Made by a program: the position numbers and the translations under genes. Positions 14,061-48,054 of a stretch of 64,000 bases of DNA are shown here, piece after piece. Position 1 is the stretch's first letter; each line of letters begins with the position of its first letter. The notes under the pieces are model-generated. The model worked only from the letters and a program-made list of their open reading frames with translations. It did not search any database and had not been told where the DNA came from. Source of the stretch: Flavobacteriales bacterium (lineage in GTDB: Bacteria > Bacteroidota > Bacteroidia > Flavobacteriales_F > PHOS-HE28); NCBI GenBank assembly GCA_039931265.1, contig JBDTSG010000147.1:17642-81641 (forward strand), read 5' to 3'.

Positions 14061-14140
14061 GGCGCTAAGGAAAGAGGCGCAAGGTCGCGAAAGAAGAAGG
14101 CGGCCCATGGCCGCCTTCTCCGATGATCGGTTGAAGGCCT

Positions 14141-23498: not shown

Positions 23499-23766
23499 GG
23501 GACCGGCGCCAAGGGCGAACGGCGATGGGGAGCGGCGATGCCGCTGTCCGTCGCCGTTGCCGTTCATGCCACATTCAGTGGGGAAAGCCCTACTTGTGCG
23601 ACTTCCTCCGAGGGCAACGGTGCATTGATCCATCGGCGTTCGACGTGGGCAGCCGGGGAAAGGGTGCCAGGAACCGAAGTTGGAAACAACGGCCTGATAC
23701 TGTTGGCCGGAGACATTGTGCAGCGTTCCATCCACTTACCTTGTCTTGCCCACAAACCCCACGCCC

Positions 23767-33483: not shown

Positions 33484-33571
33484 GCCGCTCCCTCAGCGGA
33501 ACAACCGCTTGCTCATGCGCCCTTCCGGACGCGTGCTCAACCGCACACTTTTCGGTCACGAACCGAAAACC

Positions 33572-36034
33572 ATGCGCACCAGAGCCCACCTTTCCGACCT
33601 CGCGATCCCTGCTGCTATCCTGTCGCTTCTGGCATTGGGCTTGACAGCGTCCGCGACTTCCGTGCGTGTTGGTTTCATGGAGAACAAGGGGCAGATACAC
33701 GATCAGTTCCGCAAGCCGAACGCGGCTGTGTCGTTCCTCTTGAGCGCTCCCGGCATGAACGTTCAGTTGCGCAGGGATGGGTTCTCGTACGATACGTATG
33801 TAGTGATGGACAGTGAAATGGTGACAGAGTTGGACAGTGAGAAAGCGTTGGATAGTGCAATGGATATGAAGGGAAGGGGGGCGATGGATGTGAACGTGGT
33901 CGCGACCACCTTCGCCTTCCACCGCATCGACATCCGGTTCGTGGATGGGGATCCGAACGCGGAGATCATAAGGGGCGGTCGCAGCGAGGACTACACGAAC
34001 TACTACACCGATGTGACCGGTGAGGCGGGCGCGACGTTGGTCCGTTCCTACTCTACCATAACGTACAGCAACGTATGGCCGAACATCGATGTGCGCTTCA
34101 ACAGCGGCGAGAAAGGCTTCAAGTACGATGTGGTCGTGCGGCCCGGTGGCGATGTGAACGACGCTCGGTTCGCCGTGGAAGGCGCACTGGTGAGCAAGGG
34201 TTTGGACGGGCGGCTTGTGTTCAGTTGGGGCAGCGGAACAATGGAAGAAGTGATCCCGGAGAGCTGGCTGGAACTGGATGGGAAGCGCGAACAAGCAGCG
34301 GTCAGCTACCGCATCAACGGTGCAGCGCAGTTCGGCTTCAATTCTCTTCCCCAAGGCAAGAGCACCTTGGTGATCGACCCCTATCCCGATCTGTATTGGG
34401 CTACTTACTATGGTGGCAACTTGGCGGATACGTTCAGTGGAGTTGCCATGGACGGCGGTGGTTCAGCGTATGCAAGTGGGAGTACGAAGTCCGCGGCCAG
34501 TATCGCCACTGCCGGATCCTTCGATGCGGTGTTCACCGGTAGCGAGAACGCCATGCTGGTGAAGATGAGCCCGAACGGCGCGCGCGCCTGGGCCACCTAC
34601 TTCGGCGGGACCGGTTACACCGCAGCGAACGCATGCGCGTACTCTGGAGGTGCGCTCTGGATCGGTGGGCGCACCGATTCCCCAACCGGGATAGCTACCG
34701 CAGGTGCCTTCCAAGCCACTCGGGATCCATTCTCGGCGGACGCCTTCCTGGCCAAATTCAACACGGCCGGTGTGCGACTTTACGCCACCTACTTCGGCGG
34801 CCGGGCCGCAGACGCCATCACCGATATCGCTATCGATGCAGGCGGCTGGCTCGCGGTGGTCGGCTATACCGATTCGGACAATGTGATCGCGACCATCGGT
34901 AGTGCGGACGCCTCCTACGGGGGGAACACGGACGGTTTCGTTTCGCGGTTCACACCGGCCGGCTCGCGTGTGTGGGGGTGCTACATCGGTGGCCCTTCCA
35001 CTGACCGTGTTTCGGGTGTCACCATCGTGGGCACCACTGCGCTCGCCGTTTGCGGATCCACCAGCAGTTCCACCGGGCTTGCTTCAGTGGGTGCGTGGGA
35101 TGCCTCTTTATCAGGTACCAACGATGCCTTCCTTGCCTCGTACTCATTGGGCGGTCCGCTATCCTGGAGCACCTACTTCGGTGGATCCGGTGCCGAGACC
35201 GGCTATGACTGTGCGTGGAACGGCAGCGCGGCCATCGCCATTTGTGGGCATACCAACTCATCGACAGCCATCGCCACGGCAGGCGCACAACAAACAGCCT
35301 TCGGTGGAGGAGTGGACGCTTTCCTTGCCTCGTTCAGCACTTCAGCAGGCAGCCGCATCTGGGCCACTTACGCAGGAGGTTCCTGCTGGGACGACCTTAC
35401 GGCCATCTCTTACAACGGCTTTGGTCAATGGGTAGTGGGCGGGGCCACGTGCTCGGACCTGGGCATGGCCACTCCGGGTGCGTACGATACCGTGCATGAC
35501 TGGTACGATCTGTTCCTCACTGGTTACGATGTCACCGGTGCGCGGCTCTGGGCCACGTACATGGGTTGCAGCGTGCCCGAATACACCAACGATATAGTGG
35601 CCGGCGGCAACGTGGCCTACGTGGTGGGGGAAACCATCGCCCCTGGCACGTTCGCCACGGCAGGTGCGCACCAAAGCGCTTACGGTGGTGGATTGAGCGA
35701 TGGTCTCATAGCGCGGTTGAATCTCACCCCCCCGGCCGCTCAAATGAGCCCCGATGAAGGTCGCGATCATTCCGCCGGTGGACTCGATGCACGGATCGAC
35801 AACGACAGGATAGTGCTACGCATGATGGATGCTGATGGCAACGCGACCACTGGTCAGGCGCGCGCCATGCTCACTATCTACGATGGAAGCGGCCGCACGG
35901 TGCTGATGCGACCCTGGCCCGAGAACACGCTGGACATGCAGCTACCGATCAATGGTATCAGCGCCGGGCCTTTGATGGCGGTGATCGCCCATGAGGATGG
36001 ATTGTACCACACCGCTCGCATCGTGATCCCTTGA
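33572..36034 (+). CDS. T9SS-sorted secreted protein with SBBP beta-propeller repeats
   Basis: Signal MRTRAHLSDLAIPAAILSLLALGLTASA; repeated ...WATYFGG... SBBP-type units; a C-terminal sorting-like domain ends ...LYHTARIVIP. Confidence 0.7.
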   Translation: MRTRAHLSDLAIPAAILSLLALGLTASATSVRVGFMENKGQIHDQFRKPNAAVSFLLSAPGMNVQLRRDGFSYDTYVVMDSEMVTELDSEKALDSAMDMKGRGAMDVNVVATTFAFHRIDIRFVDGDPNAEIIRGGRSEDYTNYYTDVTGEAGATLVRSYSTITYSNVWPNIDVRFNSGEKGFKYDVVVRPGGDVNDARFAVEGALVSKGLDGRLVFSWGSGTMEEVIPESWLELDGKREQAAVSYRINGAAQFGFNSLPQGKSTLVIDPYPDLYWATYYGGNLADTFSGVAMDGGGSAYASGSTKSAASIATAGSFDAVFTGSENAMLVKMSPNGARAWATYFGGTGYTAANACAYSGGALWIGGRTDSPTGIATAGAFQATRDPFSADAFLAKFNTAGVRLYATYFGGRAADAITDIAIDAGGWLAVVGYTDSDNVIATIGSADASYGGNTDGFVSRFTPAGSRVWGCYIGGPSTDRVSGVTIVGTTALAVCGSTSSSTGLASVGAWDASLSGTNDAFLASYSLGGPLSWSTYFGGSGAETGYDCAWNGSAAIAICGHTNSSTAIATAGAQQTAFGGGVDAFLASFSTSAGSRIWATYAGGSCWDDLTAISYNGFGQWVVGGATCSDLGMATPGAYDTVHDWYDLFLTGYDVTGARLWATYMGCSVPEYTNDIVAGGNVAYVVGETIAPGTFATAGAHQSAYGGGLSDGLIARLNLTPPAAQMSPDEGRDHSAGGLDARIDNDRIVLRMMDADGNATTGQARAMLTIYDGSGRTVLMRPWPENTLDMQLPINGISAGPLMAVIAHEDGLYHTARIVIP

Positions 36035-36124
36035 ACCGCTCCCTCAGCGCCGCGACCGCTCGCTCGGAGTTCCTTCCGCACGAGCGGTGGCGGCGTTTGC
36101 TTCGACACGATAACGATGCAACCA

Positions 36125-37732
36125 ATGAAAACACTTCTCCTCCCCTTCGCATTCGTGACTTCCAGCGCGCTGGCTCAATGGAGTACCGATCCCGCTGCAC
36201 CGCTGCAGGTGTGTGGTACGGCAGGAGCGCCTTCCGCGCCGAGCGTATTCTCCGATGGCTCCGGTGGCTGGTTCGCCTTCTGGACGGACAAACGCACCGA
36301 CCAGACCAACCGCGAAATCTATGGCCAGCATTTGGACCCCGACGGCATGGCGCTTTGGCCGAACGATGGAAAGCTGATACACAATGAACCCGGATCAAGC
36401 ATTGAGGAGATCGCTGCTGCGCGATTGGACAATGGCAATGTGATGATCGCGTACCTATTCCGCCCGGCGGTCTTCCAAGACACGCTGAGAGCCCTTGCGA
36501 TCGACGCCAACGGCGATCCGGTGTGGTCCGCACCGACGCACATCACACAGTGCGGCTCACCGATCCTCGGCCTTGGCGATCTGCGCGTGATGAGCACTGC
36601 TGGGGGTGCCTACGTTGCTTGGTACGACACCTACTTCGGGGGGAGCAACGGTATCAACGTTACACGGGTGACCAGCGCGGGCGATCTGCCCTGGGGTGTG
36701 GACGGCTATGCCATCCCAAGCGCGGCCTACGGACCGTATGAGTTGCTCAACGACCACGCCACTGGCGCGGTGGTGCAGTGGCGCACCGGCAACGGATCGG
36801 GTGCCCACCTGATGGCAATGCGGGTTGATAGCACAGGTGCGAACGTTTGGGCCGCCAACGTGCAGACCAGCGTGGGCAGCGGTGGTCTGAATTATGCCTT
36901 CCACTCCACGGTGGACGGACTTGGCGCTCATTTGACCGCCTTTGTGGACTTACCGCACCACATCGTGATGGCCCGTGTGGACACTACCGGCGCGCTCACG
37001 TACTCACCTTCGCCCGTTAGTGTTTGCACCTTCGCCAGCGATCAGGACCAGCCCATGGTGGTGGTGAGCGAGGGCTACACCTTTGTTGCTTGGACCGACA
37101 ACCGCCCACCTGCGAACTATAGGGACTTATATCTGCAGAAGCTGGATGCCGACGGTCTACCACAATGGGACCCCGATGGTGTGGCCGCCATCCAATTGAA
37201 CACGTACATACCCACTCCCGGACTTGTCTTATCCGATAGCGGTGCGGTGATCGCCACCATCGACGCGAACGTTGCAGGCTATTCCGCCATGCGTATGCGC
37301 GCGGATGGCACCGCCGCCTGGCCAGCGCCTGTGCAATTCTGCACACCCGCGTTCAATCCGTTCTACACCTCGCAAACACAACATGCCGATGGAGAAGGTG
37401 GTGTGGTGAGCTTCTGGCTCTCCAGCGGCATTGCGATCCACGCCGCGCGCATCCATCGGAACGGATCGCTCAACAACGATGTGGGCATCGATGAACATGC
37501 TTCCTCGACCAGCATTGCCGCTTATCCGAACCCAGCGAACGATCTGATCACCTTCACCTTGCCCGCCAACGAGCGGGCCACGCGGATCGAACTGATCAAC
37601 ATGACCGGCGCCATCGTTGCACATCACAGTAGAACAGGCACGATCAATATCCATGCGCTCCATGCCGGCAGCTACACCGCGCGCATCCGTACGGCGCATG
37701 GTGTGTACTTCTCCCGCTTCATCAAACTTTGA
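36125..37732 (+). CDS. T9SS-sorted secreted protein
   Basis: Signal MKTLLLPFAFVTSSALAQ; C terminus IAAYPNPANDLITFTL...ATRIELINMTGAIV...GSYTARIRTAHGVYFSRFIKL. Confidence 0.7.
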   Translation: MKTLLLPFAFVTSSALAQWSTDPAAPLQVCGTAGAPSAPSVFSDGSGGWFAFWTDKRTDQTNREIYGQHLDPDGMALWPNDGKLIHNEPGSSIEEIAAARLDNGNVMIAYLFRPAVFQDTLRALAIDANGDPVWSAPTHITQCGSPILGLGDLRVMSTAGGAYVAWYDTYFGGSNGINVTRVTSAGDLPWGVDGYAIPSAAYGPYELLNDHATGAVVQWRTGNGSGAHLMAMRVDSTGANVWAANVQTSVGSGGLNYAFHSTVDGLGAHLTAFVDLPHHIVMARVDTTGALTYSPSPVSVCTFASDQDQPMVVVSEGYTFVAWTDNRPPANYRDLYLQKLDADGLPQWDPDGVAAIQLNTYIPTPGLVLSDSGAVIATIDANVAGYSAMRMRADGTAAWPAPVQFCTPAFNPFYTSQTQHADGEGGVVSFWLSSGIAIHAARIHRNGSLNNDVGIDEHASSTSIAAYPNPANDLITFTLPANERATRIELINMTGAIVAHHSRTGTINIHALHAGSYTARIRTAHGVYFSRFIKL

Positions 37733-37851: not shown

Positions 37852-38502
37852 CTACTGCCAAGCGTCCTGCTTCCTGAACGGTGATCGTTCCATCCAACGC
37901 ACGTTGCGCCATAGGCCGAAGAGCAATGCGTACGCGAACCATGCGGTGATCGTGCCGATCAGGGCTCCAGCAACAACATCTTCCGTGAAATGTTGGCTGA
38001 TCCATACCCTGCTACCGGCCAGTAGCACGGCAACAACGGCCAGCACGATGGACCAGCCACGCTGGTCGATGAGCAGAGCCACCGACAGACAGAGACCGAA
38101 AGCAGCAGCGCTATGGCCGCTGGGAAAACTGAAATGCTGCATCAACTCCGTTCCCTCGGGTATGCGCAGGCCGGGCATCTGTTCCAAGAAGTACCCGGGG
38201 CGATGGGCTGCGAAAACACTGCGTTTCAATGTTTGTACTGCCAAGGAACCGAGCAGCGATGCTCCTCCGACCAACAGCATGCTCCTCCAACTGCGCCACA
38301 AGAGAGCCAATGCGATCACGCCGGTGAGGTAGCCATCAGCGATATGCGTCCCGTACACGAAGATGGGGTCGGCCCACTGCGGCAAGGAGGCGTTGATGCG
38401 CTGGTGCAATTCCAATTGGGTGTTTCCCAGCATGAGCCCGACCGCAACCCCGCACCACGCCAACAGCACGATCATGAAGGGCAGCAACGCGCGGTTCGCC
38501 AT
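37852..38502 (-). CDS. PAP2 family phosphatase (membrane)
   Basis: KRSVFAAHRP...PSGHSAAAF...SRVWISQHFTEDVVAG is the PAP2 KxxxxxxRP / PSGH / SRxxxxxHxxxD signature. Confidence 0.8.
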   Translation of the reverse strand: MANRALLPFMIVLLAWCGVAVGLMLGNTQLELHQRINASLPQWADPIFVYGTHIADGYLTGVIALALLWRSWRSMLLVGGASLLGSLAVQTLKRSVFAAHRPGYFLEQMPGLRIPEGTELMQHFSFPSGHSAAAFGLCLSVALLIDQRGWSIVLAVVAVLLAGSRVWISQHFTEDVVAGALIGTITAWFAYALLFGLWRNVRWMERSPFRKQDAWQ

Positions 38503-38850: not shown

Positions 38851-41800
38851 TCAGGGCAGTTGCTCCTGGCGTGTTGTCGTAGGAACGCTTCCGCCAACGT
38901 TCACCAGGATCGGATCGCGATCGTTGTTCACACCGATGTACTTGGTGACGCCATCGAGGTTGATGTCCGTGACCATGTAGCCCGGTGTGGTGTTCGTGGG
39001 TACACTGCCACCGATGTTCACCAGGATCGGATCGCGATCGTTGTTGGTGCCGATGTACTTCAACATGTTGTCGCGCACCACGTTGCCGCTCCATTGTGCC
39101 CATTTGCCATTGGGAAGTTGTGTGCGGGCCTGCGTGCCATAGGTGGCGGTGGTGGTCAGCGTGAAGTCAATGCTCTTCTCGTCCTTGTTCAACAGGGTGC
39201 TCGTGCCGATCATCACCCCGAAGTGGTTGCGGTGGCGAACAGCGATGAAGTAGTTGTCGCTGGCAACGTTGAAGAGCATCCGAGGGTAACCATCGGTGCC
39301 TATGATATCCCCGTCGCGTTGCAACAAGGCGCTCCGCGTTGCAAGCACCTGCGCACTGTTGTTCTTGTTGCGCAGTTCAACCAGCACCCAATCCACGATC
39401 GCGTTCTGGCCGGTTACAGCAAGCATTCCCGGCGATACCGTCTCCCCTCCTCCACCTCCGGCATGCGTAAAGCCGAGGCCCGTGAAGGGTTCGGTCGACG
39501 GAATGAACCCTTGCGCGCGAAGGTCATCGCGCATCAATCCGGTGTTCGTGTCGAAGGCACCCTGCAATACCGTCCGCAGTTTCACACTCGGTGAACAATC
39601 CTGCCAACGTGCCAGATAAGCGCCCGCTACGATGGTGCGCGTCGGAACGCTCGGCCGTTCCCAGCGCACCGTCATATGATCGCTTCCTGTTCCCTCCTTC
39701 TGCAGAAACTCGAAGTAGTAGTACACGCCTGCTTGCAACTGTATGCCTGCGCTGCGCTGGGTTGGGTACTTGGCGTACTCGGTATCGTTCGTCCAGCCCG
39801 CAACACTGGCGATCTGCTGCTTCAATTCAGGCTTGGCATTGAGGCTCAGATACAGAACGGAAGCCTCATTGCTCGTAACCGTGAAATAGAACAGTCCCGT
39901 CTCCGGCGCTATGATGTAGCCACGCATGCGTGTGCCGGTATTGTCGCCCCAGTTGGTCGGTCCCTGGATGCTCGTTGGGAATGAAGATCCGTTCGGGCTG
40001 TTCGGATAGTTGGCGTTGCTCGTAAGGTCGCTCACCGCTACACCGGAACCGATACCCGTCCAGAATTCGCGCAGTATGCTGCCAGCTGCACCAACGCACT
40101 GGGGTGGGTCCAAAGAGATGACACTGATAACGCGCGACGCATGCCCGACCAAGCCTTCATTGTCCGTTACGGTGAGGGTTACCACATGATCGCCAGCGCT
40201 GGTGAAAGTCTTGCTTGGCGACGGTCCGGTGCTCATTGTACCATCCCCGAAATCCCAGGCATAGCTCGCTATGGTCCCGTTGTCAGTGCTTGATGATCCA
40301 CTGAAATTAACCGGGAGCGGCGCTTGCCCGGAGCTTACGTTGGCGACGATCACCGCCACGGGCGGGGTATTGGCGCAACGCGGTTGCAGGTCATGCGTAA
40401 CGGTCGTGCTCAATCCCTTTGAATCAGTAACCGTGTATTTCACCTCGTACCAATAGTCGTCGATCGCGCAACCGACACCACTGATCACGGTGTTCGTTGT
40501 GGCGGTGTAGACGGGACTTTCGGGGTGCGTGTGGTTGTTGTGGTGGAAGATCGTTTGCCACTGGTGCGTCAATGGCAGGGAGTTGGGTTCAAGGTCGATT
40601 GCCGTTCCAGCACAGGCGTAGGTCGTATCCACACCCACCGGGTAGTGATGTCCATCCGGAAAGCTCGTAATGCTCACCAAGGGTGGCGTGTTGTTCACGC
40701 TGACGATCAGCGTTGCCGTGTTGAAGGCACTGCTCGGGTCGAGCACCGTTAACGTGACGTTGTATGTGATCGGGTTGCCGTTGAGCGGTGTGTACGTGTG
40801 CAGTGGGTTGGGCAACGAACTGTTCGGTGTGCCATCACCGAAGTTCCAACTGTAAGTGAGGGCTGCGTTCTCCGGATCGGTACTGTTGCTGCCTGTGAAC
40901 TGCACCGTGAGCGGGCCAGGCCCGTACTGCACGTTCTGTTGCGCAACAGCGGCTGGGGGCAAATTGGTCACCCCGATGGGGGCGATCTTCCGAATGGTGT
41001 AGGTATCGTAGCGTATGTACCAAAGCGCGTGGTCGGGGCCCTCTGTAATGAATACCACCGGCCCTAGAATGTCACCGAAGCTGGCCACGCTCACCGGACC
41101 ATTGTCCGCATTGAACGTGAACCGGCGGATCCACGCACCAGCGTAGTCGGCGTTGAAGTACACGTTCTGGTAACCGAGCGGCCAACCAATACCCGTAAGC
41201 CATGTACCGCCAACGGACGCGCTGCCGCCGAACCGGGGCCCCGTTACCGGGCTACCGGGCATATCGATGTCGAAGGTCACTGCAGTATTACCACTGAACC
41301 CTGCACAACGGCTGCGGTTCGCATGCGCCCAGTCGATCTTCGGTCGGCTGTGGAACCAGTGCGGCACCTCCAGCGGCACTTGCACCGCCGCATTGCACGG
41401 ATTCGGATGGCCGTTCAGGGGCATTTGCGTTTCCTGTTTGAGCAGGTCCTTGAAGTTGAAGTACTGCTGCGTGCATCCTCCGGTACCGAACAGCGGGTTC
41501 GGCATGTCGGGATTCGCAGTGGGTACGGTGTCGAACGCCAAATGGCTTTCCATTCCCTCGTACAAAGGCCACCCGAAATTCTGGCCGGGGTCGGTACAAA
41601 CGTTCAGTTCCTCCCAATCATCAGAACCGACATCACCGATGTAGAAAGCCCCGGGGTTCCCATCGGCCGGGTTGGCGCTGCCGCTACCGGGGCGGCGTGT
41701 CATACGGTACGGATTGCGCAGGCCCGAGGCCCAGACCCGGCTCTTGGGCGCACGCGGTTGCAACGGATCATAGTACGGGTTGCTCGGAACGCCATCGCCC

Positions 41801-42564
41801 GTGTTCGGGTCGATCCTCAGAAGTTTTCCGTTGTAGCAATTGAGCAGTTGGCTCCTGAACGAACCGATGTTCTCGTTCGGGCGGATGATGCTGTCGTTGA
41901 GCGCTTGGCTCCAGTAGGTCTCACTCGCACTACCAAAGTCATTGGAGCTGTAGCTCCCTCCGTCACCAACGGTGGCCATCAAGGTGCCGTCGGCGCCGAA
42001 AACCAGTTGGCCGGTGCTGTGACTTTCGTGCAGTAAGGGCACTCCTGTCTTCTTGGTTTCACCCAATAGGACCACTCGGCTGTTGTCATCCACCGTATTG
42101 AAGTTGGGACCGATCGCGGTGTACCGCGTGATCCGCATGATCGTCGCTGAGAAGTAGTCGTTCACGAAAATGCTGTAGTTGTCAGTGCCATAGTTCAGGA
42201 GGTGGTGGCGATCAACAGCGTACAAAGCGTAGATGCGTCCATTGCTAAGGAAGTTGGGATCGAGCGTAAAGCCCAGAAAACCATGATCACGCCATTCACC
42301 CACTTCGGTATTGATGTCCAGGAGCGGCGGGTTCAATTTCACACCGTTCTCCACGATCCACACGATGCCGGCTTTCTCCCATACGTACATCCGGCCGTTG
42401 GCATCGAACGTGAACCCCACCGGTGCGTTGAACCCGCCCATCACCAACGCATCGGTGAAACCTGACGGAACGGACTGCGAACTGACCTTGGTCGATGAGA
42501 ATGCGAACAGCATTAGGGCGATCACCCACGCCGAGAAGGGGTCAGAGTTGATGGTCCGGTTCAT
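38851..42564 (-). CDS. Large secreted multidomain protein A (GSDH-like beta-propeller + PKD repeats + PA14 + unassigned C-terminal module)
   Basis: Signal MNRTINSDPFSAWVIALMLFAFS. SVPSGFTDALVMGGFNAPVGFTFDANGRMYVWEKAG is GSDH-like. PKD-like repeats follow (...DPENAALTYSWNFGDGT...). The PA14-like block is GYIIAPETGLFYFTV...YYYFEFLQKEG. The C terminus carries two NNDRDPILVN(I/V)GGSVPT repeats. Confidence 0.8.
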   Translation of the reverse strand: MNRTINSDPFSAWVIALMLFAFSSTKVSSQSVPSGFTDALVMGGFNAPVGFTFDANGRMYVWEKAGIVWIVENGVKLNPPLLDINTEVGEWRDHGFLGFTLDPNFLSNGRIYALYAVDRHHLLNYGTDNYSIFVNDYFSATIMRITRYTAIGPNFNTVDDNSRVVLLGETKKTGVPLLHESHSTGQLVFGADGTLMATVGDGGSYSSNDFGSASETYWSQALNDSIIRPNENIGSFRSQLLNCYNGKLLRIDPNTGDGVPSNPYYDPLQPRAPKSRVWASGLRNPYRMTRRPGSGSANPADGNPGAFYIGDVGSDDWEELNVCTDPGQNFGWPLYEGMESHLAFDTVPTANPDMPNPLFGTGGCTQQYFNFKDLLKQETQMPLNGHPNPCNAAVQVPLEVPHWFHSRPKIDWAHANRSRCAGFSGNTAVTFDIDMPGSPVTGPRFGGSASVGGTWLTGIGWPLGYQNVYFNADYAGAWIRRFTFNADNGPVSVASFGDILGPVVFITEGPDHALWYIRYDTYTIRKIAPIGVTNLPPAAVAQQNVQYGPGPLTVQFTGSNSTDPENAALTYSWNFGDGTPNSSLPNPLHTYTPLNGNPITYNVTLTVLDPSSAFNTATLIVSVNNTPPLVSITSFPDGHHYPVGVDTTYACAGTAIDLEPNSLPLTHQWQTIFHHNNHTHPESPVYTATTNTVISGVGCAIDDYWYEVKYTVTDSKGLSTTVTHDLQPRCANTPPVAVIVANVSSGQAPLPVNFSGSSSTDNGTIASYAWDFGDGTMSTGPSPSKTFTSAGDHVVTLTVTDNEGLVGHASRVISVISLDPPQCVGAAGSILREFWTGIGSGVAVSDLTSNANYPNSPNGSSFPTSIQGPTNWGDNTGTRMRGYIIAPETGLFYFTVTSNEASVLYLSLNAKPELKQQIASVAGWTNDTEYAKYPTQRSAGIQLQAGVYYYFEFLQKEGTGSDHMTVRWERPSVPTRTIVAGAYLARWQDCSPSVKLRTVLQGAFDTNTGLMRDDLRAQGFIPSTEPFTGLGFTHAGGGGGETVSPGMLAVTGQNAIVDWVLVELRNKNNSAQVLATRSALLQRDGDIIGTDGYPRMLFNVASDNYFIAVRHRNHFGVMIGTSTLLNKDEKSIDFTLTTTATYGTQARTQLPNGKWAQWSGNVVRDNMLKYIGTNNDRDPILVNIGGSVPTNTTPGYMVTDINLDGVTKYIGVNNDRDPILVNVGGSVPTTTRQEQLP
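39023..39663. repeat. 641-bp tract 100% identical to 42920..43560 (paralog gene-conversion block)
   Basis: A hand comparison of both copies shows no mismatches across the tract, while the flanks diverge immediately (~85% identity). Confidence 0.8.
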
Positions 42565-42747
42565 TCGAAGGTCAATGTTGAAGATCGGGCGAGGCAAGCT
42601 ATCCGGTGTTTCAATACGGGTCAAGGTGCCACCAGAACGATCCCATGGGCGCGGAACGGACCTCCCTTGACATGTCCTCACCGGCAGCACGCCGCACTTC
42701 GTGAAGGGAACCCTGGGGCCATGGCAGCGCGAGGCCTGAGGCTTCCA

Positions 42748-45700
42748 TCACGGCAGTTGCTCCTGCTTTGTCGCTGTCGGCAGGGATCCACCCAAGTTCA
42801 CCAGGATCAGGTCGCGATCGTTGTTCGTGCCGATGTACTTGGTCGATCCGTCAAGGTTTATGTCCGTCTGCTGGTAACCCTGGGCCGTGTTGGTGGGAAC
42901 AAGCCCGCCGATACCCACGAGGATCGGATCGCGATCGTTGTTGGTGCCGATGTACTTCAACATGTTGTCGCGCACCACGTTGCCGCTCCATTGTGCCCAT
43001 TTGCCATTGGGAAGTTGTGTGCGGGCCTGCGTGCCATAGGTGGCGGTGGTGGTCAGCGTGAAGTCAATGCTCTTCTCGTCCTTGTTCAACAGGGTGCTCG
43101 TGCCGATCATCACCCCGAAGTGGTTGCGGTGGCGAACAGCGATGAAGTAGTTGTCGCTGGCAACGTTGAAGAGCATCCGAGGGTAACCATCGGTGCCTAT
43201 GATATCCCCGTCGCGTTGCAACAAGGCGCTCCGCGTTGCAAGCACCTGCGCACTGTTGTTCTTGTTGCGCAGTTCAACCAGCACCCAATCCACGATCGCG
43301 TTCTGGCCGGTTACAGCAAGCATTCCCGGCGATACCGTCTCCCCTCCTCCACCTCCGGCATGCGTAAAGCCGAGGCCCGTGAAGGGTTCGGTCGACGGAA
43401 TGAACCCTTGCGCGCGAAGGTCATCGCGCATCAATCCGGTGTTCGTGTCGAAGGCACCCTGCAATACCGTCCGCAGTTTCACACTCGGTGAACAATCCTG
43501 CCAACGTGCCAGATAAGCGCCCGCTACGATGGTGCGCGTCGGAACGCTCGGCCGTTCCCAACGCACTGCCATGTGATCGCCGCCACCGCCTTCCTTCTGC
43601 AAGAACTCGAAGTAGTAGTACACACCCGCCTGCAACTGGACCCCTGCGCTCCTTTGCGTCCCGTACTTGGTGTATTCCGTTTCGTTCGTCCAACCCGGTA
43701 CGCTGGCGATCTGTTGCTTCAATTCAGGCTTGGCGTTCAGACTTAAATACAGGATCGAGGCATCATCGCTGGTCACGGTGAAGTAGTAGAGCCCGGTTTC
43801 AGGAGCGATGATGTAGCCGCGCATTCGGGTACCGTAGTTGTCGCCCCAGTTGGTCGGTCCTTGAATGCTCGTTGGGAACGAAGATCCATTGGGGCTGTTC
43901 GGGTAGTTCGCGTTGCTCGTAAGGTCGCTCACCGCTACACCGGAACCGATACCCGTCCAGTATTCACGCAGTATGCTGCCCGCTGCGCCAACGCATTGGG
44001 GTGGATCGAACGTGATCACGCTGATCATGCGCGATGCGTGACCGACCAGACCATCGTTATCCGTGACCGTAAGGGTTACTACATGATCACCCGTGCTGGT
44101 GAACGTTTTGCTCGGCGCTGATGAAGTACTTGTGGTGCCATCGCCGAAATCCCAGGCGTAGCTCACGATCGTACCATTGTCCACACTGGTACCGCCATTG
44201 AAGTTCACCGCCAACGGACCTTGGCCTGCGCTTACGTTGCTGACGATCACTGCCGTGGGCGCAATGCTGCTGCAACGCGGCTGCAGATCATACACAACGG
44301 TCGTGCTCAGCCCTTGAACATCGGTTACCGTGTACTTCACCTCGTACCAGTAATCATCGGTGTAGCAACCGAGACCGCTGATCACGGTGCTCGTCGTCAC
44401 TGCGGTAACGGGGCTCTCGGGGTGAACGTGGTTGTTGTGGTGGAAGATCGTTTGCCACTGATGCGTCAATGGCAAGGAGTTGGGCTCAGGATCAGTTGCT
44501 GTTCCAGCACAGGCGTAGATCGTATCCACCCCGAGCGGATAGAAGTGCCCGTCCGGGAAACTCGTTATGCTCACCACAGGCGGCGTATTGTTCACGCTGA
44601 CGATCAGCGTTGCCGTGTTGAAAGCGCTGCTCGGGTCGAGCACCGTTAACGTGACGTTATATGAGATCGGGTTGCCGTTGAGCGGTGTGAAGGTGTGCTG
44701 TGGGTTGGGTAGCGAACTGTTCGTTGTGCCATCACCGAAGTTCCAGATGTAGGTAAGCGCGGCGTTCTCCGGATCGGTGCTGTTGCTGCCGGTGAACTGC
44801 ACCGTGAGCGGGCCGGGCCCGTACTGCACGTTCTGCTGTGCCACAGCGGCCGGGGGCAGATTCGTGACCCCGATGGGCATCACCTTCCTAATGGCACCGG
44901 TATCGTAACGCACATACCACAAACCACCGTCAGGACCTTCCTTCACGAAGACAACTGCGCCCATGCTCGAACCGAAGTTGGCCACGTTCACTGGTTTGTT
45001 GTCTGCATTGAACGTGAACCGTTTGATCCAAGCGCCCGGGTAGTCGGCATTGAAATATGTGTTCTGGTACCCGATCGGCCAACCGATGCCCGTAAGCCAT
45101 GTGCCACCAACCGAGGCATTCCCGCCGAAGCGTGGCCCCGGCACCGGACTTCCAACAGCATCGAGATCAAAGGTCACTGCCGTGTTGCCGCTGAAACCGC
45201 CACAACGGCTGCGGTTGCCATGTTGCCAATCGATCGCGGGGCGGCTATGGAACCAATGCGGCACGTTCACGGGTACCTGTACCGCGGCATCGCAAGGGTT
45301 CGGGTGACCGTTGAGGTGTACCGGTGTGTCCTGCTTCAAGAGATCCTGGAAGTTGAAGTACTGCTGCGCGCATGATCCTGTGCCATAAAGCGGGTTCGGC
45401 ATATCCAAGTTGGGCGTGAGCGCGGCCGCGTAGCTCGTGTTGTTCTCCAATCCTTCGAAGATGGGCCAGCCGAAATTCTGGCCGGGGTCGGTGCTCACTT
45501 GCAGGTCTTCCCATGTACCCCAGCCCACATCACCGATATAGAATACGCCCGGGTTGCCATCCGCCGGGTTGGTACTGCCGCTACCGGGTCGGCGTGTCAT
45601 GCGGAACGGGTTCCTCAACCCCATTGCCCAAACACGGCTTTTCGGTGCACGTGGCTGAAGCGGGTCGTAGTAAGGATTGCTCGGTACGCCATTGCCCGTG

Positions 45701-46470
45701 TTCGGATCCAAGCGGAGCAACTTCCCGTTGTGGCAATTGAGCAACTGGCTACGCATGGCGCCCACGTTCTCAGCGGGGCGGATGATGCTGTCGGTCAGGG
45801 CTTGTGAGAAATAGGTCGCACCGTCATTTCCCACATCCGTTGCGTTGTAGCTGGCACCATCACCAACGGTTGCCATCAAGGTTCCATCCGCACCGAAAAC
45901 CAACTGGCCCGTGCTGTGACTTTCGTGAAGCAAAGGCACACCCGTCTTCCTCGTCTCACCGAGCAGCACGAAGCGGCTGCTGTAGTCCACCGTATTGAAG
46001 TTGGGACCGATGGCCGTGTACCTCGTAATGCGCATGATGGTCGCGGCGTAGTACTGGTTGGTGCCCGCATTGTAGATACCGGTGCCAGTGCCGTAATTCA
46101 TCAAATGGTGCCGGTCCACCGTGTACAGCATGTACATACGCCCGTTCGTCAGAAAATCCGGATCGAGGGTGAACCCCAGGAAACCGTGGTCGCGCCAATC
46201 ACCTACTTCCTCGCTGATGTCCAACAGCGCAGGACTGAGTTTCACGCCGTTCTGCACGATCCACACCCTGCCCGCCTTCTCCCATACATACATGCGGCCG
46301 TTAGCATCGAACGTGAACCCCACCGGTGCAGTGAACCCGTTCATCACCAACGCGTCGTTGAAGCCCGACGGAACGGTTTGTGCGCAAGTGCTTGGGCCGT
46401 TCAGCACCATACCGACCAGCAATAAGAACGCACCGGAAAAGCGCAGATCAAGCACAATGGACTTCTTCAT
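42748..46470 (-). CDS. Large secreted multidomain protein B (tandem paralog of A)
   Basis: Signal MKKSIVLDLRFSGAFLLLVGMVLN. It has the same GSDH-like / PKD / PA14 / C-terminal architecture as A. About 200 C-terminal residues are identical to A, and the last ~50 diverge. Confidence 0.8.
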   Translation of the reverse strand: MKKSIVLDLRFSGAFLLLVGMVLNGPSTCAQTVPSGFNDALVMNGFTAPVGFTFDANGRMYVWEKAGRVWIVQNGVKLSPALLDISEEVGDWRDHGFLGFTLDPDFLTNGRMYMLYTVDRHHLMNYGTGTGIYNAGTNQYYAATIMRITRYTAIGPNFNTVDYSSRFVLLGETRKTGVPLLHESHSTGQLVFGADGTLMATVGDGASYNATDVGNDGATYFSQALTDSIIRPAENVGAMRSQLLNCHNGKLLRLDPNTGNGVPSNPYYDPLQPRAPKSRVWAMGLRNPFRMTRRPGSGSTNPADGNPGVFYIGDVGWGTWEDLQVSTDPGQNFGWPIFEGLENNTSYAAALTPNLDMPNPLYGTGSCAQQYFNFQDLLKQDTPVHLNGHPNPCDAAVQVPVNVPHWFHSRPAIDWQHGNRSRCGGFSGNTAVTFDLDAVGSPVPGPRFGGNASVGGTWLTGIGWPIGYQNTYFNADYPGAWIKRFTFNADNKPVNVANFGSSMGAVVFVKEGPDGGLWYVRYDTGAIRKVMPIGVTNLPPAAVAQQNVQYGPGPLTVQFTGSNSTDPENAALTYIWNFGDGTTNSSLPNPQHTFTPLNGNPISYNVTLTVLDPSSAFNTATLIVSVNNTPPVVSITSFPDGHFYPLGVDTIYACAGTATDPEPNSLPLTHQWQTIFHHNNHVHPESPVTAVTTSTVISGLGCYTDDYWYEVKYTVTDVQGLSTTVVYDLQPRCSSIAPTAVIVSNVSAGQGPLAVNFNGGTSVDNGTIVSYAWDFGDGTTSTSSAPSKTFTSTGDHVVTLTVTDNDGLVGHASRMISVITFDPPQCVGAAGSILREYWTGIGSGVAVSDLTSNANYPNSPNGSSFPTSIQGPTNWGDNYGTRMRGYIIAPETGLYYFTVTSDDASILYLSLNAKPELKQQIASVPGWTNETEYTKYGTQRSAGVQLQAGVYYYFEFLQKEGGGGDHMAVRWERPSVPTRTIVAGAYLARWQDCSPSVKLRTVLQGAFDTNTGLMRDDLRAQGFIPSTEPFTGLGFTHAGGGGGETVSPGMLAVTGQNAIVDWVLVELRNKNNSAQVLATRSALLQRDGDIIGTDGYPRMLFNVASDNYFIAVRHRNHFGVMIGTSTLLNKDEKSIDFTLTTTATYGTQARTQLPNGKWAQWSGNVVRDNMLKYIGTNNDRDPILVGIGGLVPTNTAQGYQQTDINLDGSTKYIGTNNDRDLILVNLGGSLPTATKQEQLP
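42920..43560. repeat. 641-bp tract 100% identical to 39023..39663
   Basis: See the paired feature at 39023..39663. Confidence 0.8.
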
Positions 46471-46833: not shown

Positions 46834-46947
46834 GTTTCTTCACTCAAACGCTGTTGCCTTGAAGTCCGAGGCTTTCAGACCGACGGAGGGAGACCTTGCT
46901 TTTCAATGACTGCCGCTGGTTGTCGTCGCCGATACATTCGCGGCCGT

Positions 46948-48054
46948 ATGGCAAAAACAACATCTATCATAGTGCTCGCCGCGTTGCTCGCTGCCTGCGG
47001 GGGACCACCGCATCCCCAGGAGATCGCGGCTGTTCCCGAACCGGACAGCGTACCAAAGGACACGCTCATCCTTCCGGGCGAGACCCACTTCAAGACGTTG
47101 AAGCAATTGACCTTCGGCGGGGACAATGCCGAGGCCTATTGGAGTTTCGCCGGTGACAAACTCACGTTCCAGGTCACCAATCCGGCTTGGGGGGATAGCT
47201 GCGACCAGATCAGGTTCTTCAACCCGTTCACCGACGACCTGACAACCGGAGCGCCGGCCAAGATCAGCAGCCGCAACGGCCGCAACACGTGCAGCTACTT
47301 CCTGCCCGGCGATAGCCTTGTGCTTTTCGCCAGTACGCAATTGGCAGGGCCCGAATGCCCACCAGTACCCGAGCGGAAACCCGGTGGCAAGTACACGTGG
47401 CCGTTGTACGAAAGCATGGACATTTTCGTGAGCGACCTGAAAGGCAAGATCCGCAAGCAACTGACCAAAACCAAGGGCTACGATGCGGAAGGCACGGTTT
47501 CACCGAAAGGTGATCGCATCGTGTTCACCAGTGTGCGCAATGGCGACATCGATCTGTACACGATGAACATCGACGGTAGCGATGTGAAACAAGTGACCAA
47601 CACCTTGGGATACGACGGTGGTGCGTTCTTCAGTCCGGATGGCACCAAGCTGCTGTGGCGCGCAAGCCGCCCCACCAAACCCGAAGACGTGAAGGACTAC
47701 AAAGACCTTCTGGCCGCGGGCCTCGTTCAACCAACGCAGATGGAACTCTTCGTTGCCAATGCCGACGGCACCGATGCAATGCAGATCACCTCGCTCGGCA
47801 AAGCGAATTGGGCACCCTATTGGCACCCCGATGGCAAGCACATCATCTTCGCCAGCAACCACATGACCGAACGCGGTTTCCCTTTCAGTCTGTTCATGAT
47901 CAACACCGATGGCAGTGGGCTGGAGCGACTCACCGCGAGCGACACCTTCGATGCCTTCCCCGTGTTCAGCGCGGATGGCCGCTACCTCGTTTTCAGCAGC
48001 AACCGTGGTGGCAAAGACCACGAGACGAACCTGTTCATTGCCGAGTGGCAATGA
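46948..48054 (+). CDS. TolB-like / PD40 beta-propeller lipoprotein
   Basis: Lipoprotein signal MAKTTSIIVLAALLAACGG; repeated FSPDG...(L/I)xF PD40 units. Confidence 0.75.
   Translation: MAKTTSIIVLAALLAACGGPPHPQEIAAVPEPDSVPKDTLILPGETHFKTLKQLTFGGDNAEAYWSFAGDKLTFQVTNPAWGDSCDQIRFFNPFTDDLTTGAPAKISSRNGRNTCSYFLPGDSLVLFASTQLAGPECPPVPERKPGGKYTWPLYESMDIFVSDLKGKIRKQLTKTKGYDAEGTVSPKGDRIVFTSVRNGDIDLYTMNIDGSDVKQVTNTLGYDGGAFFSPDGTKLLWRASRPTKPEDVKDYKDLLAAGLVQPTQMELFVANADGTDAMQITSLGKANWAPYWHPDGKHIIFASNHMTERGFPFSLFMINTDGSGLERLTASDTFDAFPVFSADGRYLVFSSNRGGKDHETNLFIAEWQ

Follow-up and report, generated by a model that had tools for sequence, protein, structure and literature searches.

Introduction

In Clostridium thermocellum, the cellulosome is anchored to the cell surface by the dyad of an X-module and a type II dockerin (XDoc). 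Canonical dockerins comprise two repeats, each with a 12-residue EF-hand-like calcium loop (D1, N/D3, D5, backbone at position 7, acidic residue at position 12) followed by a helix. In the T9SS, the C-terminal domains (CTDs) of type A are recognised by PorV, and those of type B by PorP/SprF-like proteins. The attachment of cellulosomes to the cell surface by type II dockerins is calcium-dependent (PMC12484212).

We report here on two paralogous genes from a Flavobacteriales bacterium, located in a stretch of 64,000 nucleotides that was analysed as a whole (hereafter the window). Their products combine a sugar-dehydrogenase-type propeller with a C-terminal module, which we compare with the above-mentioned systems.

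Organization of the two paralogous genes

Paralog A (38851..42564, minus strand; complete CDS of 1237 aa plus stop, start MNRTINSD) and paralog B (42748..46470, minus strand; complete CDS of 1240 aa plus stop, start MKKSIVLD) occur in tandem, and their products are 83% identical. The original prediction of a propeller, PKD repeats, a PA14 domain and a C-terminal module was confirmed by the open reading frames, the Pfam matches and the comparison of the paralogs, which both have the following order: signal peptide, sGDH-type six-bladed propeller, PKD, Ig-like domain, PKD, PA14 and a C-terminal module of 248 aa. A tract of 641 nt, which includes the final part of PA14 and the greater part of the C-terminal module, is 100% identical between A (39023..39663, minus strand) and B (42920..43560, minus strand), whereas the flanking sequences are only 73% and 78% identical. 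This difference indicates a gene conversion, or possibly an assembly collapse instead.

The predicted Sec-type signal peptide of A (42475..42564, minus strand) reads MNRTINSDPFSAWVIALMLFAFSSTKVSS followed by QS, with a Gln right after the predicted cleavage site and no lipobox cysteine; signal peptides were inferred from a hydrophobic N-terminus followed by A/S-Q. The orthologs of A have the consensus ...AQ(T)VPxGF in common at this end. Downstream of the propeller, Pfam recognised the first PKD/Big_9 domain (40702..40965, minus strand; about aa 534-621), the second PKD domain (40129..40371, minus strand; about aa 732-812, with a PKD_4 match at aa 732-808, E 1.8e-35) and the PA14/GLEYA-type glycan-binding domain (39619..40077, minus strand; about aa 870-979). 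The E-values in A and B were 6.7e-8 and 1.5e-10 for PA14, and 1.9e-5 and 1.5e-8 for GLEYA, respectively. A domain of about 110 aa between the PKDs (40372..40701, minus strand), which has no Pfam model, was delineated from the sequence and the consensus of relatives; its HHNNH(T/V)HPE motif is kept in relatives as LHHNxHxH. This domain is an addition to the architecture originally described.

Three other proteins of the window harbor a Por_Secre_tail domain (36116-37732, E 6e-9; 23716-25371, E 9.5e-7; 21358-22794, E 1.1e-7), and a fourth candidate (6223-8400, E 4e-5) falls short of the Pfam cut-off. The statement that other secreted proteins of the window end in a T9SS domain is therefore borne out, with a type A CTD in at least three of them, probably four. 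The same holds for the claimed absence of such a domain from both paralogs: the Pfam and NCBIfam searches that detect the CTDs of these neighbors found no match to any T9SS CTD model in A and B.

The propeller

The propeller of A (40969..42474, minus strand) matches the GSDH family of PQQ sugar dehydrogenases (PF07995; aa 46-358, E 1.6e-18) and has the complete six-bladed fold of the sGDH enzymes; an insertion of some 100 residues, Cys included, follows the NFGWP motif. The H182 and R283-N284 residues, which are invariant in the orthologs and across phyla, align to HSGGRIAFGPDG and GHRNPQG of 2ISM; we take them to be the catalytic base His144 and the PQQ-contacting pair Arg228/Asn229 in the numbering of A. 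calcoaceticus sGDH. Judging from the alignment, the propeller retains the catalytic-type His and Arg-Asn pair, and it may bind PQQ. In sGDH, the basic residues of blades 5-6 that bind the PQQ carboxylates are presumably Lys377, Arg406 and Arg408. The HMMER alignment to the sGDHs reaches the GWP motif only, leaving blades 5-6 outside the alignable part; in a manual motif alignment, the Arg-x-Arg before the last GPDG is seemingly absent (GPVVFITEGPDH). Invariant basic residues occur elsewhere in the propeller (H405, R407 and R419). The original question whether the propeller is catalytic or purely carbohydrate-binding is answered in part: the enzyme fold, the His and the Arg-Asn pair are there, and the carboxylate-binding residues of blades 5-6 are not alignable. 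The protein noticed at 12942 as a separate PQQ-sugar dehydrogenase (12942-14108) is a divergent GSDH/DUF7133 protein.

The C-terminal module

The C-terminal module, located at 42751-43494 (minus strand) in B, is made of two parts. In A, part 1 (39094..39597, minus strand; aa 990-1157) is a predicted beta-sandwich (X-module or transthyretin-like) with an N-terminal extension of about 65 aa, and bears the family hallmarks VDWVLVELR and VRHRNH. It is followed by repeat 1 (38980..39093, minus strand; aa 1158-1195), the first dockerin-like loop-helix, with the pattern W-x-G-N-V-x-x-D-x-x-L-K-Y-x-G-x-x-N-D-R-D-P-I-L-x-x-I-G-G-x-V-P-T and a helix at module residues 189-195 of the predicted model, and then by repeat 2 with the invariant terminus (38854..38979, minus strand; aa 1196-1237), which reads D-I-N-L-D-G-x-x-K-Y-x-G-x-x-N-D-R-D-P-I-L... 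and ends with R-x-E-Q-L-P-stop. The two repeats, of about 38 aa each, share 22 of 35 residues, including NNDRDPIL; TRF found no repeat in the DNA, so the tail repeat exists at the protein level only. According to the alignment and the model, each repeat starts with D-x-N-x-D-G and continues with a short helix. The invariant positions are paired across the repeats (Y181/Y220, G183/G222, N-D-R-D 186-189/225-228, L192/L231, G196/G235 and P200/P239). Such an internal two-fold symmetry is typical of dockerins.

The module had been described as unassigned, with a length of about 200 aa; it is longer (about 248 aa) and unassigned indeed. The HMM search of the tail, which had been proposed as a check, found no catalogued sequence family: even at E<=10, the last ~250 residues match no model of Pfam or NCBIfam and no sequence of the PDB. 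At the same threshold, neither the module nor any of 44 family members matches Dockerin_1 (PF00404). Likewise, no match was found to the type A models (TIGR04183, PF18962 Por_Secre_tail) in the paralogs, the module alone and the 44 members, nor to those of type B (TIGR04131, PF13585 CHU_C), for which the original prediction had also suggested a test; no other CTD was matched either. A PDB search with the family profile, dockerin chains included, was equally negative. A well-described family for the module together with a full set of catalytic residues, the combination named at the outset as contrary to the prediction, was not found at the sequence level.

Structure prediction, which had been proposed as well, revealed a resemblance to a known module that had not been anticipated, namely the X-module plus type II dockerin. 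In the AF2 model (pLDDT 89.7, pTM 0.88), the module is predicted to adopt this fold, dockerin part included. XDoc chains account for seven of the top 10 Foldseek matches, with a probability of 0.97-0.99 and a target-normalised TM of 0.52-0.59, the E-values being only about 3e-3 and the query-normalised TM about 0.4. From this resemblance, the short repeats noticed earlier would be the two halves of a dockerin-type domain. The putative calcium loop is non-canonical, with an invariant Gly at position 12 and the acidic N-D-R-D 4-6 residues further on, in a model that contains no ions. Compared profile to profile, the module and a "CarboxypepD_reg + Dockerin_1" tail align colinearly but weakly (P about 0.011, HH probability 3.7%).

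Distribution of the module family

The module is not peculiar to A and B. Its family comprises 13,000 clusters or more, with 13,112 representatives retrieved at E<=1e-3 (4,510 at E<=1e-30), and is uncatalogued in both Pfam-A (2025 copy) and NCBIfam release 20. In the genome collection searched, it occurs in uncultured Flavobacteriales/Bacteroidota MAGs only, and the names of these MAGs point to flocs and biofilms (activated sludge) as source habitats. The alignment extends to the final residue in 145 of the 150 best matches, the lengths of the proteins ranging from 255 to 3228 aa, and the terminus reads xQ[LVMI]P in 252 of the 260 members fetched. The passengers are very diverse: at least 97 Pfam families were counted on 62 carriers, among them SprB repeats, DUF7619, the CHU_C-associated Ig_7, GEVED and the peptidases M43, M23, M64 and S8, while "choice-of-anchor J" was noted on 5 of the 44 members. 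There are also short members consisting almost solely of the module, and several members of about 315 aa are named "hemagglutinin protein" by NCBI. Among 168 carriers, 112 have a hydrophobic N-terminus (with a small residue then a Gln in 99 of them), three a lipobox and two a C-terminal TM-like segment. No recurrent partner gene, cohesin-like or other, was found beside family members (80 + 3 loci of about 12-20 kb each), nor was a recurrent adjacent PorP/SprF-like gene (80 loci).

The N-terminal 980 residues of A and B are ordinary, in that they belong to a "PQQ-dependent sugar dehydrogenase" plus PKD family widespread in many phyla. Among passenger relatives with an approximately 50% identical propeller, P0331, P0345 and P0376 end with Por_Secre_tail, and P0341, P0347 and P0362 with a beta-sandwich followed by Dockerin_1. 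In A and B, the module thus stands where these relatives have a T9SS CTD or a canonical dockerin.

Discussion

From these data we propose, with a probability of about 0.5, that the module is a C-terminal tag for anchoring or sorting, dockerin-like and specific to this lineage. Each paralog would be exported via Sec and reside in the cell envelope or at the cell surface. It combines several domains, namely the propeller of the sugar-dehydrogenase type, PKD and Ig domains as spacers and PA14 for glycan binding, with the last 248 residues, predicted to form a self-contained two-part module (a beta-sandwich and two EF-hand-type DxNxDG loop-helix units). In the uncultured Flavobacteriales clade, this module would operate as a common, strictly C-terminal tag for thousands of unrelated secreted proteins, tethering its passenger to a putative cell-envelope receptor, probably in a calcium-dependent way. 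In the case of A and B, the outcome would be a sugar-oxidising, glycan-binding protein displayed on the cell; the presence of the module suggests such a display of the PA14-bearing enzyme, and not its release. The different export or anchoring route originally suggested for the two proteins is consistent with the strictly C-terminal position of the tag, the diversity of its passengers and the CTD or dockerin found in the same slot of relatives. It is worth noting that a dockerin tether alone leaves unexplained how the passengers of a diderm Bacteroidota get through the outer membrane.

The crossing would be accounted for if the T9SS used the module as a sorting signal of a new class, read at the C-terminus by the translocon together with a shuttle or anchor protein of its own; later anchoring would be optional. 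We regard this as possible, though on the unlikely side. The organism uses the T9SS, as judged from the type A CTDs in the window; the module has the strict C-terminal position and the invariant terminus of sorting signals; its passengers SprB, DUF7619, Ig_7 and GEVED are typical T9SS cargo domains (the window protein 6223-8400 itself combines DUF7619 with its sub-threshold type A CTD match); and orthologous passengers elsewhere end with Por_Secre_tail. Furthermore, the carriers have predicted Sec signal peptides and hardly any lipobox, and we know of no other general outer-membrane route for such proteins in Bacteroidota. The functional type B signals span 150-235 aa (PMC12618676), and the 248 aa of the module are not out of this range. 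A new T9SS signal is also compatible with the dockerin-like fold, in which case the "receptor" would be a T9SS shuttle protein. Three observations argue against it: the 44 members have no similarity to the four CTD models; the extreme C-terminus is predicted to be helical/loop and dockerin-like, unlike the final beta-strands of a CTD sandwich; and no PorP/SprF-like gene recurs beside the family members in the loci covered.

A purely adhesive role, in which the module would be a partner-less calcium-binding or glycan-binding domain (lectin) attaching to polysaccharide, cells or the floc matrix without any sorting function, appears improbable. Dockerin-like modules for which no cohesin is known are widespread outside cellulosomes, flocs and biofilms are the source habitats, and the members that are nearly module-only point to a self-standing unit. 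The "hemagglutinin" name goes in the same direction, but it comes without a model, and the full-length members bearing it have no NCBIfam or Pfam match. Besides, a pure binder need not be last in 145 of 150 proteins, with an invariant Q-(L/V/M/I)-P terminus; the window proteins already possess PA14 for glycan binding; and no lectin fold appeared among the top structural matches. We give very little credit to the view that A and B are ordinary dehydrogenase fusions ending with a catalogued domain overlooked earlier (T9SS type A/B/C CTD, cadherin, FG-GAP or canonical dockerin). It fits the widespread family of their N-terminal 980 residues, whereas neither the module nor the 44 members gave any match in the above searches, PDB profile search included. 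Within the sensitivity of the HMMER comparison with Pfam-A and NCBIfam, the catalogued-domain reading was rejected.

Going back to the anchoring or sorting tag, we tentatively suggest, at a lower level of confidence, that in a clade of floc-dwelling uncultured Flavobacteriales a dockerin-type module may have come to replace or supplement the T9SS CTDs over a large part of the secretome. Two forms are conceivable: a T9SS signal of a fourth class, whose fold is not that of a CTD, or a surface display of the cohesin-dockerin kind in a diderm Bacteroidota. In either case, dozens of enzymes, adhesins and proteases would be arranged on each cell by a putative receptor or shuttle.

With more than 13,000 sequence clusters, the family that the module defines lies outside the Pfam and NCBIfam copies searched, and the module marks much of the secreted proteome in Flavobacteriales lineages abundant in activated sludge. 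Should it be an anchoring or sorting tag, the rule ...VDWVxVELR...HRNH...2×NDRDPIL...xQLP-stop would predict the surface or secreted proteome of these uncultured organisms. The tag would also imply a missing receptor or shuttle protein and might bring to light a further class of T9SS signals, or a principle of display in Gram-negative bacteria that resembles the cellulosome. For surface display, the tag and its receptor would make a new, compact pair.

Comparison with known systems

The closest known propellers are those of the soluble PQQ-dependent glucose/aldose dehydrogenases (A. calcoaceticus sGDH 1C9U; Thermus 2ISM; 7CDY; fungal AA12). The propeller of the window shares with them the catalytic-type His, the Arg-Asn pair and the N(F/Y)GWP motif, and differs from them by the Cys-containing insertion of about 100 aa after GWP and by the fusion to PKD, PA14 and the C-terminal module.

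As to the module, the closest known fold is the XDoc of the C. thermocellum scaffoldin CipA/ScaA (PDB 2B59, 3KCP, 5G5D, 4FL4). Both, the module by prediction, comprise an Ig-like beta-sandwich packed on a small domain of two repeated loop-helix motifs, which start with D-x-N-x-D-G, and both terminate a large extracellular protein of modular build. Unlike XDoc, the module has no detectable sequence similarity to dockerins (10-16% identity in structural alignments and no Dockerin_1 match), a putative calcium loop about 4-6 residues longer with a Gly replacing the usual acidic ligand 12, repeats of about 38 aa instead of about 22 aa, and an additional N-terminal extension of about 65 aa on its sandwich. 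Furthermore, it occurs in a diderm Bacteroidota and not in a Gram-positive clostridium, and on thousands of different passengers instead of one scaffoldin, with no known cohesin partner.

Similarly, the Big_9/CarboxypepD_reg-like sandwich plus Dockerin_1 tails of P0341, P0347 and P0362 terminate related passengers and display the same order of a sandwich then a two-repeat domain with calcium loops, which are putative in the module, the profile alignment being colinear over the sandwich core and both repeats. These tails are shorter (about 150 aa versus 248 aa) and are recognised by Dockerin_1, whereas the module is not, the similarity being weak (P about 0.011). Compared with the T9SS CTDs of type A (TIGR04183/PF18962) and type B (TIGR04131), the module has no sequence match and a predicted helical, dockerin-like C-terminal end, and, unlike type B, no PorP/SprF-like gene adjacent to it. 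Like these CTDs, it is strictly C-terminal and common to many unrelated Sec-exported Bacteroidota passengers with similar domains, and the module and the CTD alternate on orthologous passengers.

Domain architecture of paralogs A and B

Paralogs A and B are encoded head to tail on the minus strand, at 38851-42564 (1237 aa if translation starts at MNRTINSD, the start chosen in the original prediction) and 42748-46470 (1240 aa from MKKSIVLD), and their proteins are 83% identical. An exact-sequence search for the window protein in public assemblies, with either start codon, matched no record. Both N-termini have a basic n-region and a hydrophobic core, after which a small residue precedes Gln (…KVSS before QS; …TCA before QT); neither has a lipobox Cys. 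A small residue plus Gln after a hydrophobic core is what signal peptidase I substrates of Bacteroidota usually look like, and we predict from this reading of the sequence that both proteins carry a signal peptide of that type. Pfam assigned a GSDH domain (aa 46-358; E 1.6e-18), a PKD/Big_9 domain (aa ~534-621), a second PKD domain (aa ~732-812) and a PA14/GLEYA domain (aa ~870-979), so that the architecture originally proposed (signal peptide, GSDH propeller, PKD, PA14) is borne out by Pfam and by the N-terminal sequence. The list of domains was nevertheless incomplete: between the two PKD domains lies an additional domain of ~110 aa, with a HHNNH(T/V)HPE motif kept as LHHNxHxH in relatives, for which Pfam has no model. 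Altogether, there is nothing unusual about the N-terminal ~980 residues of A and B, which belong to a known family.

The AlphaFold2 model of residues 31-545 has a pLDDT of 92.2, and the closest solved structures to it are sGDH-type enzymes. H182, R283-N284 and N-F-G-W-P (329-333), which are invariant in the orthologs and across phyla, align with HSGGRIAFGPDG, GHRNPQG and NYGWP of 2ISM, a Thermus sGDH-type structure; we take H182 to correspond to the catalytic base His144, and R283-N284 to Arg228/Asn229, of the A. calcoaceticus enzyme. The propeller genuinely belongs to the sGDH fold family, with the core catalytic-type residues kept. A Cys-containing insertion of roughly 100 residues follows GWP, and blades 5-6, which in sGDH contribute the Lys/Arg residues that bind the carboxylates of PQQ, could not be aligned by sequence to sGDH structures with HMMER. 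As regards the PQQ site, the His and Arg-Asn residues are conserved; when the motifs are compared by hand, the R-x-R preceding the last GPDG seems to be missing. PQQ dependence is plausible.

The gene at 12942-14108 (minus strand), previously described as a separate soluble PQQ-sugar dehydrogenase, does match GSDH, but in a divergent manner, limited to profile positions 171-276 (E 1.5e-12), and it also matches DUF7133 and TrAA12-like models.

Genomic context and an identical tract

Paralogs A and B share a 641-nt tract that is 100% identical (39023-39663 in A; 42920-43560 in B) and spans the last part of PA14 and the bulk of the C-terminal module. Identity is 73% and 78% in its flanks, and 57-90% in the remaining parts of the two genes. 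The simplest explanation is a recent gene conversion between the tandem paralogs, centred on the module; the identity may possibly reflect a collapse in the metagenome assembly. Long antisense ORFs lie opposite the module-coding regions (38860-39594, 42667-43491, 39296-39619 and 43193-43516, all on the plus strand) and are identical in both copies. We rejected them as genes: they simply result from the 59% G+C content and from the identical tract.

Full-length orthologs of the window proteins (~1230-1250 aa) occur in at least nine of the module loci, and in at least six to seven species they keep a PAP2 phosphatase gene downstream and a PD40 (TolB-like) propeller gene upstream (37852-38502, minus strand, and 46906-48054, plus strand, in the window; also loci L006, L009, L012 and others). 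In several loci a second sGDH-like gene stands beside the full-length ortholog. None of these three genes was retained as a partner of the module, since their synteny is restricted to the full-length orthologs and does not extend to the module family.

As originally proposed, A and B lack a T9SS CTD (no match to the CTD models of Pfam and NCBIfam), while other secreted proteins of the window have one. Pfam found the Por_Secre_tail (type A CTD) in three of them, at 36116-37732 (plus), 23716-25371 (plus) and 21358-22794 (minus), and below its cut-off in a fourth, the SprB repeat, DUF7619 and CTD protein at 6223-8400 (minus). The passenger domains of this fourth protein, SprB repeat and DUF7619, are found elsewhere fused to the module. 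The 841-aa secreted protein encoded at 33509-36034 (plus) comprises an N-terminal DUF7948 (E 2e-41) and a long Gly/Ala/Thr-rich repetitive region, beta-propeller-like, and its C-terminal end was not recognised as a CTD.

The C-terminal module defines an uncatalogued family

The C-terminal module, first estimated at ~200 aa, comprises about 248 aa. The claim that it has no assignable family stands: at a threshold as loose as E<=10, the last ~250 residues of A and B had no match in Pfam, in NCBIfam or among solved-structure sequences, and searches of these three collections with the module as a single sequence, as 44 members or as a profile returned nothing meaningful (weak matches to DUF6839, pfkB and ribosomal protein S2 were rejected as noise). 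The module is absent from the copies of Pfam-A (2025) and NCBIfam (release 20) that we searched, and we found no paper describing it in the literature searched.

The family is large. A word-indexed search with the 248-aa module retrieved 1,939 proteins at E<=1e-3, the best being 50-70% identical, nearly all from MAGs labelled Flavobacteriales. An exhaustive search of 1.84 billion cluster representatives with profile A1, built from 44 members, retrieved 13,112 proteins at E<=1e-3, of which 4,510 reached E<=1e-30. A collection of species-representative genomes contained at least 590 confirmed copies, the best 80 of which all came from uncultured Flavobacteriales/Bacteroidota MAGs, many of them from activated sludge, with up to four of these 80 copies in one MAG. 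Near-complete MAGs with the family include JACJZJ01, JADKHI01 and JADJCS01. When module genes were flagged by a regular expression, 15 of 68 loci had at least two of them, usually in tandem, within a ~12-kb stretch.

The module behaves like a C-terminal tag

The match to profile A1 ends at the last residue of the protein in 145 of the 150 best members, the carriers range from 255 to 3,228 aa, and 252 of 260 fetched members terminate in x-Q-(L/V/M/I)-P, most commonly EQLP. Across 62 full-length carriers, Pfam found 97 different families, including propellers of several kinds (DUF5122, WD40, FG-GAP), GEVED, PKD, beta-helix and MAM domains, peptidases (M43, M23, M64, S8) and typical T9SS-cargo domains (SprB repeats, DUF7619, CHU_C-associated Ig_7, P_proprotein). 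The 25 families listed, which take in all those present in at least two of these carriers, include no T9SS CTD family. The NCBIfam model 'choice-of-anchor J', a name given to domains preceding various C-terminal anchoring signals, was found in 5 of the 44 members. Among 168 members with a Met start and at least 300 aa, 112 have a hydrophobic N-terminus, followed in 99 of these by a small residue then Gln; lipobox-like motifs (3/168) and TM-like C-termini (2/168) are rare.

The most direct evidence for tag behaviour comes from the relatives of the passenger of A and B. They form a 'PQQ-dependent sugar dehydrogenase' plus PKD family (about 50% identity), spread over Bacteroidota, Planctomycetota, Verrucomicrobiota and other phyla. 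Three of these proteins (P0331, P0345 and P0376) carry a type A T9SS CTD at their extreme C-terminus; three others end in a beta-sandwich plus a canonical Dockerin_1, the sandwich being Big_9 in P0341 and P0347 and CarboxypepD_reg-like in P0362. In A and B the module occupies the exact slot of the type A CTD or of the sandwich plus Dockerin_1.

Non-terminal modules are rare. In P0187 (1083 aa) the last of three matched stretches ends at residue 839, and in P0219 (341 aa) the match ends at residue 266; each may be a fusion made in gene calling, a frameshift or a true internal copy. The 'stand-alone' member P0033 (249 aa; locus L083, 7666-10750) runs into the end of the Sortilin/PKD gene (804 aa) called upstream of it, and therefore some short members are probably fragments of longer, frameshifted carriers.

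Predicted structure of the module and its likeness to dockerins

The AlphaFold2 model of the module, computed from a 44-sequence alignment, has a mean pLDDT of 89.7 and a pTM of 0.88, the confidence exceeding 90 over the first ~170 residues and ranging from 60 to 90 over the last ~80. A beta-sandwich, extended at its N-terminus, occupies residues ~1-170, and a small domain containing two short helices (189-195, 227-233) occupies residues ~170-248; the two halves of this small domain are the 'tandem NNDRDPIL repeats' of the original prediction. The ~38-aa repeat has the family consensus D-V-N-(L/M)-D-G-x-V-K-Y-T-G-x-x-N-D-R-D-P-I-L-x-x-I-G-G-x-V-P-T, with invariant positions matching in both copies (22 of 35 residues identical between the copies of paralog A). 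The repeat is seen in the protein only, as TRF detected no tandem repeat in the DNA.

Each repeat opens with D-x-N-x-D-G and has a hydrophobic residue at position 8, as in an EF-hand/dockerin-type loop. Position 12 of such loops is normally an acidic bidentate ligand, whereas in the module it is an invariant Gly, and the helix begins with an invariant N-D-R-D a further 4-6 residues on. At best, the loop is an extended-loop variant of the dockerin type, which is probably why Pfam Dockerin_1 is blind to it (no match at E<=10 in any of the 44 members). Profile-profile comparison with P0362-type CarboxypepD_reg plus Dockerin_1 tails was colinear through the sandwich core and both repeats, but statistically weak (E 0.28 with a single sequence, 0.011 with a seven-sequence profile; P about 0.011, HH probability 3.7%), and so suggestive only of a possible link to canonical dockerin tails. 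As the family profile also matched no PDB sequence, the case for a link to dockerins is made by the predicted structure and the logic of the motif rather than by demonstrated homology. The model makes it highly probable that the fold resembles that of XDoc, the X-module plus type II dockerin of the Clostridium thermocellum cellulosome. From this XDoc-adjacent predicted fold, we rate the module as X-dockerin-like, but divergent and with an extended loop; as a C-terminal tag it has undergone massive expansion in a diderm lineage.

A candidate anchoring tag

The best explanation of these data, drawn from the tag behaviour and the cellulosome analogy, is that the module may serve as a lineage-specific C-terminal anchoring tag; the probability of a shared tag for anchoring or sorting is about 0.55-0.6. 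In the main rival, which is compatible with anchoring, the module would itself be a T9SS signal of a new class. In its favour, T9SS cargo exists in the organism, the passengers resemble such cargo and orthologous passengers use type A CTDs; moreover, with functional type B signals of up to 150-235 aa (PMC12618676), the size of the module is no objection. However, the module has no sequence or specific structural likeness to known CTDs, its C-terminal end is not a sandwich, and the loci examined have no adjacent PorP/SprF-like gene.

A third reading, a partner-less lectin or adhesin, has as its sole support the name 'hemagglutinin protein' that NCBI gives to several members with a TQGF(H/Q)Q motif. 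This motif occurs in 20 of 260 members (P0044, P0059, P0119, P0120 and about 16 others of ~310-320 aa; e.g. locus L082, 10001-10948), and in those whose sequences were read (about 310-320 aa) a signal peptide and a mini-domain of ~45 aa (…SPTVIASxGGSGxxGGVxxDWTVGE…LTQGFHQ) precede the module. These ~315-aa proteins have no match among NCBIfam or Pfam models, and no basis for the name was found; furthermore, a lectin or adhesin would leave the strict C-terminal position and the invariant terminus unexplained.

If the module is an anchoring tag, whose mechanism, partner and localisation we infer, Sec-exported passengers would be tethered by it to a receptor in the envelope. The crossing of the outer membrane, which a dockerin tether leaves unexplained, is the weak point of this explanation. 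No recurrent partner gene stands beside the module among 634 crude ORFs clustered from 80 loci, nor in the annotated neighbourhoods of P0059 and P0033. A receptor of the cohesin type seems rather unlikely. Our literature searches turned up nothing relevant on modules of dockerin type, whether in Flavobacteriales or in T9SS cargo. Cellulosomes use type II dockerins to attach the scaffoldin, in a Ca-dependent manner, to the cohesins of proteins on the cell surface (PMC12484212). For specialists of the T9SS or of cellulosomes, the size of the present family, its strict terminal motif and its slot equivalence with both CTDs and dockerins are surprising and directly testable.
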